A DNA stretch of 64,000 nucleotides. Source: an uncultured virus (IMG/VR IMGVR_UViG_3300020036_002912). Taxonomy: Duplodnaviria; Heunggongvirae; Uroviricota; Caudoviricetes. Position 1 is the stretch's first letter; each line of letters opens with the position of its first letter. The DNA lies in IMG/VR virus record IMGVR_UViG_3300020036_002912. One strand, 5' to 3'. Shown in pieces: positions 1,220 to 19,905 of the stretch. The position numbers were made by a program, and so were the translations under genes. A model generated the notes under the pieces. It did not search any database. It was not told the origin of the DNA and saw only the letters and a program-made list of their open reading frames with translations.

Positions 1220-1352
1220 GCCTAACACGGTGTCATACGCTATTGGGGGTTTTATCGTAATTCGCAGCCGTGTAGCATCGTCCAAAGTTCAGTGCAACTT
1301 GATAGTTTTGCGCTCGTAAATCCCCAACAGCGCATACACCAATTCGTTAGCG
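1220..1352 (+). repeat. attC-like site A
   Basis: GCCTAAC-ac-GGTGTCATACGCTATTGGGG ... CCCCAACAGCGCATACACC-aattc-GTTAGCG; one extra C in the left arm. Confidence 0.8.
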
Positions 1353-1574
1353 AGCATAACAGATACAGCTACCTTCACTATATCCTTTACATCGTTCGCA
1401 GTAAGCCCAACTATCTTTAAACTCTTCCCATTCCACCCAGTCATATTCATCTTGCCAAGTAAATAACTTTTCCAAATAATATTCAGAGTTACGCTCGCTA
1501 ACATCAAGTAAAAGCAAGTTTTTTTCTGCTATTTTCGATGTTAGTTTTTCAATTTTACTTTTGAATCGTTTCAT
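1347..1574 (-). CDS. Cassette-borne small protein with C-terminal CxxC...CxC
   Basis: 75 aa; start lies in the loop of site B, stop in the TAAC of site A. Confidence 0.7.
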   Translation of the reverse strand: MKRFKSKIEKLTSKIAEKNLLLLDVSERNSEYYLEKLFTWQDEYDWVEWEEFKDSWAYCERCKGYSEGSCICYAR

Positions 1575-1627
1575 AATTTTGTGCTTTTAATTAATAAAAA
1601 ACCTGCTCTTACTTGCAACCGTTATAA
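1496..1627 (+). repeat. attC-like site B
   Basis: CGCTAAC-at-CAAGTAAAAGCAAGTTTTT ... AAAAACCTGCTCTTACTTG-caacc-GTTATAA. Confidence 0.8.
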
Positions 1628-1645
1628 GCAATAAAATAAAATTGC

Positions 1646-1891
1646 CTACACACGCTCAAAATATGTATCAAATTCTTCAACACTAATATTTCCTATTGAA
1701 GCCTTGTAGATATATTTTGAATTTTCTTTAACAAGTCCTTCCCAAAATTCCATCATAAGTTCCACTCTTTTGTTTTGTGCGTAATACCAAAATATATCTT
1801 CACTATTACAAGTTAATATTAAGTTACTATGGTCTCTGCCATGTTCGGGATTTTTAAGTACAAATTCAGTTTTAACTTTACATTTTTCCAT
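1646..1891 (-). CDS. Cassette-borne hypothetical protein
   Basis: 81-aa ORF between sites B and C. Confidence 0.7.
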   Translation of the reverse strand: MEKCKVKTEFVLKNPEHGRDHSNLILTCNSEDIFWYYAQNKRVELMMEFWEGLVKENSKYIYKASIGNISVEEFDTYFERV

Positions 1892-1913
1892 CGCTCAAAT
1901 TTTATTTTACAGC

Positions 1914-2004
1914 TTATAACAAAGGCTAAAAGCAATTGCCATCAAGCATAGTGCAAATTTTGAGCAGTATTTTAGGCAACTGCTCTTAGCCTCAAACGTT
2001 AGCT
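1914..2004 (+). repeat. attC-like site C
   Basis: TTATAAC-aa-AGGCTAAAAGCAATTGCC ... GGCAACTGCTCTTAGCCT-caaac-GTTAGCT. Confidence 0.8.
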
Positions 2005-2304
2005 TCAATTGCCTACCAACGCACTAACACGCTCTTTAGCTTGTTTAATAAAATGGTCATATTGCTCGCTGTCAATATGTTCTTGACTTGTAAGCTTTAA
2101 TAAGCTATCAAGCAATAATGGCGCAGCTTCAAATAGTTTTGCATTTGCTAATCCCTGTTCTAATGACGGCATATCTTTTTCTCCTTCTACTGTAAAAAAA
2201 GCCTTTCCAATATTTGTTGTTTTACCATCATCGGAATCACACATTATCGCAAATCCGTTTATAAAACTTCTGCGCCATTTCCCTTTTGTTATTTTATTTT
2301 CCAT
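2005..2304 (-). CDS. Cassette-borne hypothetical protein (TxGxW ... ANAKLFxAAPxLL type)
   Basis: Likely start is ATG 2304 (MENKITKGKW); motif pattern common in small phage proteins. Confidence 0.7.
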   Translation of the reverse strand: MENKITKGKWRRSFINGFAIMCDSDDGKTTNIGKAFFTVEGEKDMPSLEQGLANAKLFEAAPLLLDSLLKLTSQEHIDSEQYDHFIKQAKERVSALVGN

Positions 2305-2350
2305 AATATATTTTATTAAATTGTTCTTAAATCCAGCGAAAGGCAACTAA

Positions 2351-2407
2351 AGCTAACAGCGTATAAAAGCCATTGAAAAAACGGCTCTTATACGCCTACC
2401 GTTATGA
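2351..2407 (+). repeat. attC-like site D
   Basis: AGCTAAC-a-GCGTATAAAAGCC ... GGCTCTTATACGC-ctacc-GTTATGA; overlaps the stop codon of 2402-3421. Confidence 0.8.
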
Positions 2408-9785: not shown

Positions 9786-9806
9786 TATATTCAAAGAACT
9801 TATTTG

Positions 9807-9880
9807 TAGCAGGAGTGGGACTCGAACCCACGACCTTCGGATTATGAGTCCGACGAGCTAACCAACTGCTCCACCCTACA
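9807..9880 (-). tRNA. tRNA-Met(CAT), initiator-like
   Basis: Full cloverleaf; CTCATAA loop; 1:72 mismatch; fMet-type D arm GGAGCAGTTGGTTAGCTC; anticodon stem GGA rather than GGG; no encoded CCA. Confidence 0.9.
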
Positions 9881-9889
9881 ATATATAAA

Positions 9890-10207
9890 GCCGGTTATAC
9901 AGCCTAAATCAAACCACTGAGTCATATCATTACAACTCTTCAAACTTTACATAGGATTTGAAAGAGCTTTTTACTTTAGTACTTAATCTTTAGTGCGTAA
10001 GAACTTTTACTCTTGAACTTATAAACTTTTTGCTTTGATCTTTTAGCTTTTCAGTTTTTGAAGCTGGAATCGAACCAGCGACCTCTTGATTAACATTCAA
10101 GCGATCTAACCAACTGAGCTATTTTTCCATCGCAAGGAAATTTATGTAGTGGACTATTAACGCGACAGCCCAACGCGAATGATGTTTGTGGTTTTCGTAT
10201 AACCGGC
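9890..10207 (-). ncRNA. 318-nt structured RNA with tRNA-like module and AAAG repeats
   Basis: Perfect 11-bp end stem GCCGGTTATAC/GTATAACCGGC plus AAACCAC/GTGGTTT; no long ORF. Confidence 0.75.
10059..10128 (-). pseudogene. tRNA-Asn(GTT)-like module lacking acceptor stem
   Basis: D arm, anticodon arm CTTGA-ATGTTAA-TCAAG and T arm GCTGG-TTCGATT-CCAGC are present; 5' GGAAAAA cannot pair with 3' TTCAAAA. Confidence 0.75.
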
Positions 10208-15086: not shown

Positions 15087-15620
15087 ATGAACATAAAAAC
15101 AAATAACTACCCCCACCTTCCGCCGATAACAGGAAACAATAAAGAGAGAGTGTTCACTAAGCATTGGGCTAACTTACCTTTGCATATTAATCCCAACGAA
15201 ATGGCTATCCTATCGTTTTTAACGTATCAGGCTAAGGCGGATAATACATTTAAGTATTCAGTGGAGCTGTTGCAGAGATATGTTAAGGCAGTGAGATATG
15301 CAAATGACGAATACAATCCTAGTGGTAAGAAGCGATTAAGAATGCCTAATGGACTTGCTACAACACCCGGATTTATAAAGCTGTTTATGGATCTAATGAT
15401 AGATCACGGATGGTTACTAAGCACTACAGTGAAGAATGTGTACATGATCAATCCCATGCTCACGTATGTTCCTTACTATGTAGGCAAGGAGCAATACAAG
15501 GAGATGTGTTTGTTGTATAAGGCACGGCCGGCGGATGTAGTGGAATATTTCAAAGGAATAGTGAATGGCAAGGTGAATAGCAAGAAGGGTAAAAACGCAC
15601 ATATTTTTTGGCAGGGATAA
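15087..15620 (+). CDS. wHTH/RepL-like protein
   Basis: KNVYMINP motif; stop codon overlaps attC-like site E. Confidence 0.55.
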   Translation: MNIKTNNYPHLPPITGNNKERVFTKHWANLPLHINPNEMAILSFLTYQAKADNTFKYSVELLQRYVKAVRYANDEYNPSGKKRLRMPNGLATTPGFIKLFMDLMIDHGWLLSTTVKNVYMINPMLTYVPYYVGKEQYKEMCLLYKARPADVVEYFKGIVNGKVNSKKGKNAHIFWQG

Positions 15621-15745
15621 CGAATACGGCTATGTGTAGTGCCGATGTTAAAACTTACACAAAACTTAATAAAAGGAACTAAAGATGGAAGATTTAGAAA
15701 TATTCGATAAAAGCGGAAAGGCATTATATATAGCCGATGTTAGCG
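15615..15745 (-). repeat. attC-like site E
   Basis: GGATAAC-gaata-CGGCTATGTGTAGTGCC ... GGCATTATATATAGCCG-at-GTTAGCG; contains the MTase ATG. Confidence 0.8.
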
Positions 15746-16467
15746 GTAGTGCTTTATTTCAAGGCGATTGCTTAGATATTATGCCTTTGATACCTGCTAA
15801 ATCGGTTCAACTTATTTTAGCTGATTTGCCTTATGGTACAACTCAAAATAAATGGGATTCAATTATAGACTTGGATTTACTTTGGGTGCAATATAAAAGG
15901 GTTTTAAAAGATAACGGTGCTATTGTTCTAACTTGTACACAGCCATTTACCAGCAAATTAGTAAGCTCAAATTATGAATGGTTTAAATATGATTGGACTT
16001 GGCAAAAGCCAAAAGGAACAGGGCATTTAAACGCTAAAAAACAACCAATGAGAGATAAAGAGGATATTGTTGTTTTTTACAATAAGCCATGTATTTACAA
16101 CCCACAAATGACAGAAGGTACACCATATAAAGATAAAGCAGGTAAAGACCATACGAAAAAAACTTCGATGACTGGCTCTTATGGTAACTACACTAATTAC
16201 AGGGAAGAAAATACAGGATTTAGATACCCAAAACAAGTGTTAAAATTTGGTGTAGTTGAACGAGGAACTTTACACCCAACAGAAAAGCCTTTGGATTTAA
16301 TGAAATACCTTATAAAAACATACTCAAATGAAACCGATATGGTTTTAGACAACACAATGGGAAGCGGAACTACTTGTTTAGCTGCAAAAGAACTTAATCG
16401 TAAATTTATCGGTATTGAAAAAGAACCTAAATATTATGAGATTGCCTGTCAGCGGTGCGGTTTTTAG
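15685..16467 (+). CDS. Beta-class N4/N6 DNA methyltransferase (cassette-borne)
   Basis: DLPYG catalytic motif precedes HPTEKP and LDNTMGSGTT motif I. Confidence 0.92.
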   Translation: MEDLEIFDKSGKALYIADVSGSALFQGDCLDIMPLIPAKSVQLILADLPYGTTQNKWDSIIDLDLLWVQYKRVLKDNGAIVLTCTQPFTSKLVSSNYEWFKYDWTWQKPKGTGHLNAKKQPMRDKEDIVVFYNKPCIYNPQMTEGTPYKDKAGKDHTKKTSMTGSYGNYTNYREENTGFRYPKQVLKFGVVERGTLHPTEKPLDLMKYLIKTYSNETDMVLDNTMGSGTTCLAAKELNRKFIGIEKEPKYYEIACQRCGF

Positions 16468-16473
16468 CATTAC

Positions 16474-16552
16474 TGCTAACGTTTGGCAGCTAACAGAAGG
16501 CGGCTTTTTAGCAAACATAGTATGTGCCGCTTTTTGTTAGGTGCTGTTAGGT
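16474..16552 (-). repeat. attC-like site F
   Basis: TGCTAAC-gtttg-GCAGCTAACAGAAGGCGGC ... GCCGCTTTTTGTTAGGTGC-t-GTTAGGT. Confidence 0.8.
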
Positions 16553-16599
16553 ATCAGTATTTTTAAACAGAGGGGGAGAAATTAAAAACTAAAATTATT

Positions 16600-16926
16600 A
16601 TGAAAAGTAGAATTGAAATATTAGACCAATTAGCCATTAAATGGGGTGGCAAAGATGGAGTTGAATCATTTGAGGATTACTGCCAATTTTATAGTTGGGA
16701 TGCAATTATATCGCTTGTAATGATAGCGATGCAAGAAATTGAATTGCAAGGAATGAAATTTGGTAGAGTAAAAGCAACTGTAAATAATAATCTTTTGCTA
16801 AAACACCAAGAACTTACACAATGGATTGAGGAAGAAATTAGCGATGAAAAAGATAATGTTGTTGAGCCTTCGCATGATTTTTTAAATATTCTATTTGAAA
16901 AAATACACAAATTAAACCACGATTAA
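16600..16926 (+). CDS. Cassette-borne hypothetical protein
   Basis: 108-aa ORF. Confidence 0.65.
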   Translation: MKSRIEILDQLAIKWGGKDGVESFEDYCQFYSWDAIISLVMIAMQEIELQGMKFGRVKATVNNNLLLKHQELTQWIEEEISDEKDNVVEPSHDFLNILFEKIHKLNHD

Positions 16927-16928
16927 TT

Positions 16929-17330
16929 ATGCAGACAAAAGAAGAAAATCTACAAATGAAACTTGAAGCAAGAGATTTAGAAATAGTTGCTTTAAAAGAT
17001 GCTTTATTTATGAGAAATCAAATGATACAGCGATTAGATAAAGATATTAACCAATTAGATAAGGAAAATAAAACCTTAACCGAAATAGCTGATAGTGCAA
17101 CTGCAAGGCTTAATGATAGTTCAGATTTTAATATTAAACTCCATATAAAAAATAGAGAATTAAGAAACGAAATTGAAAGAGAATGTAAAAACTTTGGTGA
17201 ATTTATCGGACACAATTTTAGCACTACAAACCATGCTGAAAGATGGGAGTGCGATAATACACACGAACTTTACGACATAGAAGAACTTTACGCTAAGTAC
17301 GTCCAACACACACAGGCGGGGAGGGTTTAA
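16929..17330 (+). CDS. Cassette-borne coiled-coil protein
   Basis: 133-aa ORF. Confidence 0.65.
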   Translation: MQTKEENLQMKLEARDLEIVALKDALFMRNQMIQRLDKDINQLDKENKTLTEIADSATARLNDSSDFNIKLHIKNRELRNEIERECKNFGEFIGHNFSTTNHAERWECDNTHELYDIEELYAKYVQHTQAGRV

Positions 17331-17339
17331 AAATATTGT

Positions 17340-17418
17340 ACCTAACGGACGGAGCTTTGCGCTGATTGGCTTTTATAAGCGGTTAGTTTGAGCCGCTTGC
17401 CATTAGGTGCTGTTAGTT
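17340..17418 (-). repeat. Degenerate/hybrid attC-like site G
   Basis: ACCTAAC-ggacg... TTAGGTGC-t-GTTAGTT; cores present but arms pair poorly. Confidence 0.55.
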
Positions 17419-17585
17419 GGTGCGTGAGCCTGTGGGTTGATTCTGTTTGTTTTTGTTCTTTTTTAAGAAGGGAAGGAAAAAAACAATTCTTTGATTTACA
17501 GCAAGTTACGAAATAATTGAAAGATTTATTTGTATATATGAAATATACGCTATATATTTGTATCAGAAATTAAAACAATAACAAA

Positions 17586-17768
17586 ATGGAAAACGTAATC
17601 GCAACTAAAGAATTAAAAGGTGGAGCTACTAAACAAGTAATCGCTTTAAGAGATGAATTTGTAATTAGAACAATTTTTACAAACGGAGCTGCGCCTCACT
17701 ACTTTAAAAAGTATTTCACAACTGAAAAAGCAGCTGTTAAAATGTTTAACCAATTAATAGCAATGTAA
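17586..17768 (+). CDS. Hypothetical protein with own TATATTTG promoter (~17553)
   Basis: 60-aa ORF. Confidence 0.6.
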   Translation: MENVIATKELKGGATKQVIALRDEFVIRTIFTNGAAPHYFKKYFTTEKAAVKMFNQLIAM

Positions 17769-18070
17769 TGACACCAAGAGAAATAATACAAGAAATTAAA
17801 GCCTCTCCAATAAATGAGAGGCAAGCTGAAAAAAATATATGTGATGCTGTTTTGAATCCATTATATGATTTACAACAAACCTGTTTAAATGCAATGAACG
17901 CACTTGATACAAATATTTTTGTTTTATTGTATTCTGATGATGATGGATATAAAAGAAGGGAAGGATTTATAAATGAAAAAAAAGCATATAGCGATATGTT
18001 TACGGAAATAAACAAAAAAGTAGAATTATTAGAACATTATAAGGAAACAGGAAATTATGGAGAGTTATGA
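17768..18070 (+). CDS. Hypothetical protein
   Basis: 100 aa, TAATG coupling. Confidence 0.6.
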   Translation: MTPREIIQEIKASPINERQAEKNICDAVLNPLYDLQQTCLNAMNALDTNIFVLLYSDDDGYKRREGFINEKKAYSDMFTEINKKVELLEHYKETGNYGEL

Positions 18071-18163
18071 AATTTGGGAATGGTTTACTAATAATATACA
18101 GTTAATTTTATTAGTATTTATATTGATAGAGTTAAGGGAAATTAATAAACGAGAAATAAAAAA

Positions 18164-18457
18164 ATGAAAAAACTACTTGATTTAAGCGAAACGTGTGTAA
18201 AAACACTAAGCAAAAGAGCCATTGATGAGAATACGAATTTCAAATTATTAGCTCAGGCTATTTTGGAACGTGAGGCAACCCCAATGGGGTATGACACGTT
18301 GTTAGGCGTTGTTGTTTCTTCTCCAAAATGTGCAGTAAAAGTAGTTTCAACTGGGGAACATTGCCCTGAAACAGGAATACATAGAATTGATGATACAGAT
18401 GAGTATTTATGTGAAAGGTGTTATGAGAATTGGATGCGTTCTCACAATAACGCCTAA
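18164..18457 (+). CDS. Small protein: RHH-like N-terminus fused across half-site H to a CxxC-containing segment
   Basis: Contains GTATGACACG-tt-GTTAGGCGTTGTTG at 18289-18314; stop in the TAAC of site I. Confidence 0.55.
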   Translation: MKKLLDLSETCVKTLSKRAIDENTNFKLLAQAILEREATPMGYDTLLGVVVSSPKCAVKVVSTGEHCPETGIHRIDDTDEYLCERCYENWMRSHNNA

Positions 18458-18580
18458 CGGTTACAGCCTTATTTAGTGTGGGCTTAGAAAGCACTAAACA
18501 ATCTTAAAATACAAACAAAATGAGTAGCAATAACGAAAATGAACCGATTAATCCCACATTGAATAAGGCTGATGTTATAA
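18452..18580 (-). repeat. attC-like site I
   Basis: GCCTAAC-ggtta-CAGCCTTATTTAGTGTGGG ... CCCACATTGAATAAGGCTG-at-GTTATAA; contains ATG 18520. Confidence 0.8.
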
Positions 18581-18729
18581 GAAGTAAATTTGTTTTTGTT
18601 CGATACCTAAATTGGGCTGGGAAAGAAAAGATACAAGTAGTAGAAGCTGAAAATGAGGGGGAGGCAAGGTTATGGATGAAGACTGCTGGATTTGAGATTA
18701 AGGAAGCAAAACAAATTTATTTCTTATAA
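18520..18729 (+). CDS. Cassette-borne small protein
   Basis: N-terminus (PTLNKADVIRS) encoded by the site I arm; stop in site J. Confidence 0.7.
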   Translation: MSSNNENEPINPTLNKADVIRSKFVFVRYLNWAGKEKIQVVEAENEGEARLWMKTAGFEIKEAKQIYFL

Positions 18730-19181
18730 CGTTATCGGGCTAAACGCAGTTACTTAAACTTTTGAGCGAGGAAATTTAAAACTAAATATAATGGAAAAAG
18801 AAAAAAGACAAATGCTTTGCGAAGAATTGCGAGGCTTAAAACTAACGCCTTCATTGAGGGAAGAATTTAATAACATAGCTAAAAACCAACCTGTGTTCGC
18901 TGGAAATTTACTATCCCATCAAGGAGCAGATGACCTTTATAAATTGGGATTGGTTTTTAGATACGAAGGTGAATATGTTTTAACGGACAAAGGAACTGTG
19001 TTGAAAGATAATTTGAAAGCATCATTTGACATTATGTGTAACGGAGTTCTTTATAAACCGAAAGGATGTAAATTAGAAAAAGACTTTAAAGAACTTGGAT
19101 GTGGCAAATGCGGTAGTGGTAGTACTGAACTGTGCGATGGCAAAAAAGTTTAAGTAATTGTCGTTTTAGCCTGTGTTATAA
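18724..19181 (-). repeat. Giant attC-like site J enclosing a whole ORF
   Basis: TTATAAC-gttat-CGGGCTAAACGCAGTTACTTA ... TAAGTAATTGTCGTTTTAGCCTG-t-GTTATAA. Confidence 0.7.
18791..19153 (+). CDS. wHTH-like protein with Cys-rich C-terminus, inside site J loop
   Basis: LYKLGLVFRYEGEYVLTDKG wing pattern; CGKC. Confidence 0.6.
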   Translation: MEKEKRQMLCEELRGLKLTPSLREEFNNIAKNQPVFAGNLLSHQGADDLYKLGLVFRYEGEYVLTDKGTVLKDNLKASFDIMCNGVLYKPKGCKLEKDFKELGCGKCGSGSTELCDGKKV

Positions 19182-19262
19182 GGCGAAGCGAACCGTTGGC
19201 TTTTCGCCAATGGCTTATAACGATAGGATTGTGGAATGCTATGTGAATTACAATAAGATACA

Positions 19263-19604
19263 ATGTACAAAACAATAAAAACAGAGGGTCATCCGGCGGA
19301 TGTGTACACCTCCATAATAGCCAAGATTAAGTTTAAGCTTACGTCTGATACAGAGATAACCGTGCTACAGTCATTAGTTAAGTACAGCAGCAATATGAGT
19401 ATTACAATGACTAAGGAGGCCAATAGTCATATAGCTAATGAAACAGGAATAAGCTTGAATTTATTAAGCACCACCATGCACCGGTTAGAAAAGAAGGAAG
19501 TGATCCGGCGGACAGGCCGAACAATTATGATACATTTAGCATTCAAAGATTTAGAAACAATTAAAGGAGTAGTGTTTGTAGCTAATCCAGCGGACCCACA
19601 TTAG
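19263..19604 (+). CDS. Winged-HTH protein
   Basis: IANETGISLNLLSTTMHRLEKKEVI. Confidence 0.7.
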   Translation: MYKTIKTEGHPADVYTSIIAKIKFKLTSDTEITVLQSLVKYSSNMSITMTKEANSHIANETGISLNLLSTTMHRLEKKEVIRRTGRTIMIHLAFKDLETIKGVVFVANPADPH

Positions 19605-19905
19605 AAGGGTTAAAGGCATCTATTTCTTTATTATGTGCAGTGAAATAGCACTGAATAATAAACCCATTCTTATCATACTTTCGATACCACACATCCCAGG
19701 TAGTTTCGCCTGAATCCGGGCGGATGGAATAGAGATCCATAAAGTCTTTAATTTCGTGTTTAGCTTCATCTGCTTTACACACTTTAGCTGCATGGCAGAA
19801 CATGTCTGCCGGCACTCTAAACTCGCATTCAGGGTTAATAGAAGCGATATTGTCAATCATTCTCAGCGCGCGGTTGGCGGTGATGTTTTTAGGTAGTTGG
19901 CTCAT
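19582..19905 (-). CDS. Hypothetical protein
   Basis: 107-aa ORF; last gene of the leftward block. Confidence 0.6.
   Translation of the reverse strand: MSQLPKNITANRALRMIDNIASINPECEFRVPADMFCHAAKVCKADEAKHEIKDFMDLYSIRPDSGETTWDVWYRKYDKNGFIIQCYFTAHNKEIDAFNPSNVGPLD

Follow-up and report, generated by a model that had tools for sequence, protein, structure and literature searches.

The DNA analyzed here, a window of 64,000 nucleotides from a tailed phage, contains an attC-like hairpin, which we refer to as J, with a whole gene lodged in its loop. Site J spans 18727..19178 on the + strand (452 nt), from the TAAC at 18727 to the GTTA at 19175, and is followed by a gene-less mini-segment of 47 nt (19175..19221, +). 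Our preferred reading, to which we give a probability of about 60%, is that J and the mini-segment form one mobile cassette of 491 nt, which would be moved by an Xer-like recombinase of the phage and would have arisen by the refilling of an existing frame. The stem, the gene, the reuse of the frame, the limits of the cassette in other contigs and the position of the enzyme family were observed directly.

The window belongs to a genome found as one contig of 74,643 bp, with genes for a terminase, a major head protein, a helicase and an exonuclease; by its gene content we take the source to be a tailed phage. Its host is probably among the Bacteroidota, since the outer arms of J recur in Flagellimonas, Croceitalea, Urechidicola and other Bacteroidota records. 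No match to 18724-19260 was found among the INPHARED phages. The genome holds two arrays, in which hairpins running from TAAC to GTTA alternate with segments running from GTTA to TAAC, whose ends are also paired. Array B (15618..19221, +) has J as its cassette adjoining an attI-like site, while array A (1223..2404, -) shows four clear hairpins and likely continues across the contig ends to a second attI-like site and the recombinase gene. Each array opens where a resident gene ends, at 15618 in B and at 2404 in A, and the TAA stop of that gene is also the TAA of the first TAAC. The start of the contig (1-532) is a foldback around unrelated gene pieces: of 150 bases, 148 agree with the reverse complement of 383-532. 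This foldback, which interrupts array A, is probably chimeric or an artefact of assembly.

Several other features of the arrays should be mentioned. The cassette next to J (18455..18730, +) has a hairpin of 123 nt and a 69-aa ORF that runs from the hairpin loop to the TAA of J's own TAAC, and one public contig matches 18455-18731 exactly, with foreign DNA on both sides. The ORFs at 15685-16467, 18520-18729 and 1347-1574 (-) start in a hairpin loop, cross the right arm and stop near the next TAAC. The long segment 17416-18301 contains several ORFs and, at about 17553, the sequence TATATTTG, which we take to resemble the Bacteroidota promoter consensus and which could drive the downstream cassettes, including J. 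As the genes are read toward the attI-like site, a Pc-type promoter located there could not serve them. DNA methyltransferase-like cargo is present in both arrays (548-1183 on the - strand, 15685-16467 and genome positions 74184-74643), as judged by a Pfam match for 15685-16467 and by sequence appearance for the other two. In-frame joints inside the methylase that were seen in public contigs turned out to be other organisms' genes. Elsewhere, a tRNA-Met gene lies at 9806-9880 (-), together with a second tRNA-like repeat at about 10066-10116 that was not called by ARAGORN.

The stem of J is formed by a left arm at 18736..18763 (+) and a right arm at 19144..19173 (+), which enclose a loop of 380 nt (18764-19143). 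The outer part of the left arm is GC-richer and the inner part AT-rich, with pair probabilities mostly of 0.9-1.0, while the right arm contains the stop codon of the ORF and two T residues predicted to be extrahelical, one at 19161 and one within the T run 19164-19167. A preliminary description of this DNA had placed the starts of the arms at 18736 and 19151, the ORF at 18791-19153 (120 aa) and the mini-segment at 19175-19221 (47 nt), and all of these coordinates are correct. Its picture of arms about 400 nt apart that enclose a whole ORF holds for the enclosed gene, although the stem is longer than was quoted and the last codons and the stop codon lie within the right arm.

When folded as single-stranded DNA, the + strand of 18724-19181 reached -49.8 kcal/mol (z -3.31), a value that none of 100 shuffles equalled, whereas the - strand of the same stretch folded more weakly (-35.5 kcal/mol, z -1.75; 6 of 100 shuffles as good). 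Within a context of 1 kb, most pairs of the stem have probabilities of 0.9-1.0 on both strands. As in attC sites, AAC and GTT triplets close the hairpin, the boxes flanking them are paired in the linear as well as in the circular fold, and the asymmetric central spacer (18732-18735) is unpaired in the ensemble. The two bulges of J are both T and both lie on the 3' arm of the gene strand, whereas attC sites have two or three extrahelical bases on one arm, of which the first is usually a G. Over 74 sites, 41 bulges were counted on the 3' arm of the ORF strand (30 of them T) as opposed to 22 on the 5' arm. As the bulges of attC sit on the R''-L'' arm (PMC2727003), the gene strand would correspond to the bottom strand, and we thus regard the + strand of J as having attC bottom-strand geometry. 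Across 15400-19700, Rfam gave no match at E values up to 0.5.

The arms of J found each other as mutual best partners genome-wide, with an anchored score of 46 and runners-up of 29 and 30, in a scan that considered all 1433 GTT[AG] and all 1433 YAAC positions and excluded the matching of an arm to its own reverse complement. When the right arm was shuffled 1500 times with dinucleotide composition kept, the mean score was 11.5 and the maximum 31. The complementarity is thus significant against shuffled controls, and both arms are also reused together elsewhere, so that the possibility raised earlier, of two arms left over from separate degraded sites, does not hold. We therefore consider it extremely improbable that the arms pair by chance or descend from two decayed sites, or that the ORF is a read-through gene cut by a stop codon in the arm. 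Mosaics do exist, as the arms of site 17343-17416 do not match each other (z -1.05) and this site is probably a mosaic of two hairpins, and the ORF of J does lie in the frame that read-through genes use at the GTT. Against this, the ORFs of the 16 filled sites described below are spread over the three frames at GTT without preference (6, 6 and 4), which argues that J does not hold a truncated read-through gene, and a homologue of the J gene ends in another frame (locus L009). Finally, an independent public run yielded a contig in which the ORF, the right arm and the mini-segment follow one another (18859-19197) with 14 differences, those listed all falling inside the ORF, and J is thus not an assembly artefact.

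The cargo gene (18791..19153, +; 120 aa) is predicted, weakly, to have a winged-helix-like N-terminal domain and ends in a Cys-rich tail of low confidence. We consider this ORF to be a real gene, to judge by how its sequence varies. Six homologues were found; the comparison with the one in L009 (69% identity) gave a pN of 0.21, a pS of 0.55 and a dN/dS of about 0.25, and in the independent contig 8 of the 13 changed codons are silent. A structure model built from seven sequences has a pLDDT of about 90 over residues 1-80. The best match in a fold search was to winged-helix proteins at an E value of 0.045, a weak resemblance, and no match to the cargo was obtained at E 0.001. Pfam, NCBIfam and PHROGs gave it no name, the best Pfam hit (E 0.019) being under the cut-off. 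Among viral contigs, none of 18 pattern matches was confirmed as a homologue, and among metagenome contigs the 272 matches yielded one homologous locus. The proteins P0002-P0004 end in CDGKKV, CDGFV and CVGF, which look like the right border motif of J described below with other arms behind it; these C-termini suggest that the gene family occurs in further frames.

The same arms were found around other genes. The exact pattern of the right arm led to five viral loci. Two of these carry J's arms around unrelated genes of 61 aa (L005) and 131 aa (L007), and a third (L008) has a 75-aa gene between inner arms with compensatory changes. In L004 and L006, the same outer arms form gene-less sites of 49 nt, while in L009 a hairpin with different inner arms has the homologue of the J gene in its loop. 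This comparison of arms and genes in L004-L009 bears out the earlier proposal that cargo can be carried within the site itself, far beyond the typical length of attC. A second frame holds five unrelated cargos and has its own mini-segment of 70-72 nt (L131, L134, L136 and L141, a single phage with two of the five); L134 and both L141 sites share a common leader up to the ATG and a common trailer after the stop codon. What had been called a single site of 1328 nt in L141 is really two sites of 324 and 341 nt, and the true site in L040, as judged by eye, has 49 nt. In total, we found 16 distinct filled sites, 229-661 nt in length. They hold 18 ORFs, among which those of the window and L009 form the only clearly related pair. 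As the loci were mostly retrieved with J-like patterns, filled sites are over-represented and these numbers provide no estimate of frequency. It should also be considered that 86 of 115 distinct matches to the left-arm pattern came without a partner arm and were taken as chance, although the flank available for many of them was just about 320 nt long and long sites may thus be missed.

These sites allow one to consider the reading that J is a dead site, namely that, after the entry of a gene into the loop, the hairpin folded too rarely and now only rides with its neighbours or moves by homologous recombination. Natural attC sites measure 57-141 bp (PMC5371416) and their end loops 3-100 nt (PMC7439510), so that the loop of J is about four times the longest one published, and long loops cut attC recombination by up to four logs under replicative conditions (PMC8946536), which counts against our preferred reading. 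This reading would also fit the finding that no contig with J excised is present among the public contigs, where four runs had no coverage of J's cargo and are uninformative on this point. We nevertheless consider it quite unlikely. The arms co-vary and stay paired in all 16 filled sites, and the long sites have the strongest stems: with a single threshold for all lengths, eight long filled sites score 32-44, as compared with 25-34 for 16 sites of 84-128 nt, which is what selection for pairing across the loop would lead one to expect. In addition, J-type frames stand between different neighbours in each phage and change at TAAC, and the differences listed in the independent contig all lie within the ORF.

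The mini-segment is, in our view, part of the same unit, as the second and empty loop of J's cassette; the preliminary description did not make this link, nor did it include the recombinase and the attI-like sites. It folds on its own (z -3.25; 1 of 200 shuffles as good), and an identical 47-mer stands behind J-type arms in L007, L008 and L159. Positions 19182-19188 read GCGAAGC on the gene strand, presumably an unusually stable DNA mini-hairpin that would form a three-way junction beside the core. A gene-less segment shorter than 80 nt follows 13 of the 16 filled hairpins and none of the 66 other sites for which a call was obtained (84 in total, 18 without a call on the following segment). 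The exceptions are L132, where a degenerate mini-segment can be made out by eye, and L183 and L184, which were found via the recombinase and have genes in both loops. Public contigs depart from the window sequence at 18730-32 and at 19213-22, and over 18300-19400 a TAAC marks 11 of the 21 loose ends considered, out of 23. We regard these loose ends as related cassettes in other phages rather than as excision events in this one. A mini-segment after filled hairpins and loose ends at TAAC together imply that the cassette consists of a hairpin and the segment following it, with a putative crossover at TAA|C; for J, this gives a cassette at 18730..19220 (+; 491 nt) that reaches from its first TAA|C to the following one. 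The circular fold of 18730-19220 is a dumbbell of -54.4 kcal/mol on the gene strand, as opposed to -37.7 kcal/mol on the other strand. Both the J frame and the neighbouring cassette were found next to different neighbours in different arrays, with the switch at TAAC, as is expected of units that move between arrays, while no public contig had the exact J cassette complete with its two ends. Four of the 21 loose ends lie at 19168-19174, where the mini-segment stands behind two other right arms; the mini-segment is thus not bound to J's arms alone, and exchange near GTT also occurs or has occurred.

The ends of the cargo are marked by short G-rich motifs. The left motif, GAGCGAGG (18764..18771, +), sits at the inner end of the stem, with similar ones at the same place in other filled frames, and the right motif, GTGCGATGGC (19132..19141, +), is translated as the last residues of the ORF. 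Such a motif is found 41-49 nt from the end in 12 of the 16 filled sites and is absent from four. A strict version was present in 6 of 9 filled sites, in a parse that missed the five sites of the second frame, as compared with 3 of the other 84 hairpins, 6 of the 38 segments that carry a gene behind the core and none of the 26 read-through cassettes. A search with the motif plus the arm returned one locus only, which was already known.

The motif raises a further reading, in which the inner module (the AT-rich inverted repeats, the G-rich motif and the gene) is a separate small mobile element or a second site-specific system that can enter either loop. In L021, L003, L133 and array A, the same inner arm and motif also flank cargo that lies behind the core, and the two motifs of L021 make up a direct repeat of 12 nt. 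Moreover, a chimera in L159 (2670-3065) fuses a behind-core left arm to the right arm of J and its 47-mer across one gene; this contig is palindromic and phage-like and was binned with a bacterium. We consider this reading very unlikely, since the inner-arm sequences vary from frame to frame with only their pairing kept, the loci examined included no empty loop bearing a single motif, and exchange over shared frames accounts for L159 as well. The left and right motifs, furthermore, usually differ within a site, so that there is no plain target duplication, and the duplication of a direct repeat as the general origin of the motif is likewise unsupported. A 12-nt direct repeat was also seen in L069, where the segment behind a 99-nt site carries a 262-aa gene and the repeat lies at the inner ends of long AT-rich arms; it differs from J's motif.

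We favor, instead, the view that frames are refilled with different ORFs near the start and stop codons and are not created from scratch, as the comparison of frames indicates. A similar pattern is seen in the window segment 16546-17346, which returns in public contigs with different content between 16598 and 17304-8; the ATG of the segment is at 16600. The preliminary description took J as a hint at how cassettes are created. This can be kept in so far as reusable frames are refilled and L159 is a chimera of two frame types, although neither an empty J precursor (no empty J frame was found among the loci examined) nor a source of the genes came to light. Refilling would most simply proceed by recombination over the shared borders.

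As to the enzyme, array B closes with an attI-like 39-mer (19218..19256, +), of which an identical copy lies outside the window at genome positions 74210-74248 (-), 6 nt before the gene for an Xer-like tyrosine recombinase of 294 aa (genome 73319-74203, -). The copy in the window precedes a 113-aa helix-turn-helix-like gene (19263-19604) rather than a recombinase, and the phage thus has two arrays and one recombinase. The attI-like 21-mer had no match in viral contigs. The catalytic residues of the recombinase are intact and are invariant across 29 relatives. Its scores are all under the cut-offs, with 92.7 bits for the IntI family TIGR02249 (cut-off 265), 119 of 335 (TIGR02224) and 117 of 330 (TIGR02225) for the XerC and XerD families and 152 of 220 for XerA; its best sequence matches are XerA/XerC-like, and the XerA alignment has no large gap. 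Compared with the Vibrio integrase, it is short by about 40 residues (22 positions where VchIntIA has 64) and has no IntI insert, whose I2 helix docks extrahelical bases in integron integrases (PMC7790495). Among 39 viral loci with relatives, 23 were parsed. In all seven of the closest parsed relatives (31-65% identity), a TAAC precedes the start codon by 38-76 nt, and hairpin sites lie upstream on the same strand in six of these seven and in one relative at 27%, as compared with none of the 15 remaining. L179 and L180 share a common end site and differ in the adjacent cassette. The recombinase family is, by its position, tied to the arrays and is a candidate for moving their cassettes.

The absence of the insert counts against an enzyme of this kind working on a folded strand, and one should therefore consider the reading that a host IntI moves cassettes of the same anatomy, with the phage gene only marking the first landing site of the array. 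The same outer arms form sites of 61-63 nt in at least six Bacteroidota chromosomes or bins (L149, L153, L157, L160, L164 and L171), where the genes lie on the opposite strand in the ordinary integron layout; these come from 33 genome matches, mostly due to chance, of which L148, L151, L153, L159 and L164 were inspected in detail. In addition, IntI1 recombined an attC of a Polaribacter phage (PMC9892861), and in another attC a change of the G bulge to T cost only 1.8-fold with IntI1 (PMC2727003). What stands against the host enzyme is the distribution of the phage enzyme family, which is found at the array ends in six of the seven closest relatives and in none of the 15 distant ones, and we consider the host reading rather unlikely.

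Returning to the phage recombinase, from the above we infer recombination itself, the acting enzyme, the dumbbell and the route of refilling as follows. The enzyme would act on the gene-coding strand in its folded state, with cutting and joining at TAA|C; phage replication likely provides the single strand for this folding, and the excised cassette would form a dumbbell with one core-bearing stem and two end loops. A gene could then occupy the loop behind the core, as is ordinary, the hairpin's own loop, as in J, or span both loops, with an extra AT-rich stem closing a long loop. New cassettes would likely be existing frames that were refilled: one ORF would be swapped for another close to the start and stop codons, most likely through recombination in the stretches of shared frame, 40-90 nt on either side, and the G-rich motif would mark the border. 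A stronger proposal, namely that a dedicated process in Bacteroidota phages loads whole ORFs into either loop of dumbbell cassettes at the G-rich motif and that an Xer-like enzyme without the insert acts on them, would make these sequences a record of cassette making; it is tentative and, to our minds, doubtful.

Cassette formation in integrons has been described as largely unknown (PMC5371416). If J moves as a cassette, it would offer a route to how gene cassettes acquire genes, as a fixed frame with unrelated ORFs swapped near the start and stop codons provides defined substrates and borders for study. Should a site of 452 nt recombine, attC-type sites would span a size range three times as wide, and models of attC sites, which were trained on loops of 20-100 nt (PMC4889954), would be expected to miss such cassettes. 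If an Xer-like enzyme truly works without the I2 helix, it would represent a second solution to single-strand recombination and would bear on the origin of the integron integrase.

In comparison with known systems, J shares with integron attC sites an imperfect AAC/GTT hairpin, an unpaired spacer, predicted bulges on one arm and a variable end loop, and the arrays share with integrons cassettes in a row, a putative crossover at the AAC triplet and a fixed site at the end of the array. Unlike natural attC sites, J extends over several hundred nucleotides with a whole gene in its loop, the bulges of the phage sites are mostly T and pairing reaches far beyond the core on the other side. In integron cassettes, the gene lies on the top strand, upstream of attC, whereas the phage genes lie on the bottom-like strand, so that the hairpin precedes or contains its gene. 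The counterpart of attI is here the duplicated 39-mer, which has a conserved position before the recombinases of relatives and is a candidate by position. AttC-type sites have been described within phage genomes, namely in the CALINs that Qi et al. (2023, PMC9892861) reported for virulent phages, among them Polaribacter phage P12002L, one Bacteroidota phage, and there, as in both arrays here, a DNA methyltransferase is among the cargo; these CALINs have no integrase, and the accessible parts of that report describe no gene within a site, no long site and no Xer-like enzyme at the end. More generally, the mostly open-access literature, as far as its text was available (including PMC12614218 and PMC8618304), gives no account of whole genes in attC loops, nor of such phage arrays with an Xer-like enzyme. 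The synthetic attC sites placed in coding sequences (Nivina et al. 2020, PMC7439510) resemble J in that an attC overlaps a coding sequence, and they do recombine; there, however, the site lies within the gene and has a loop of 3-21 nt, whereas in J the gene lies within the site. The phage enzyme resembles XerC/D and archaeal XerA, below the family cut-offs, and the CTX phage provides a likeness in that Xer can act on a folded single strand (PMC7790495), although the substrate here, unlike that of Xer, is a variable cassette array with attC-like bulges. Taken on its sequence features, the phage cassette system is thus integron-like, yet it stands outside the integrons in its enzyme, in the length of its sites and in the orientation of its genes.
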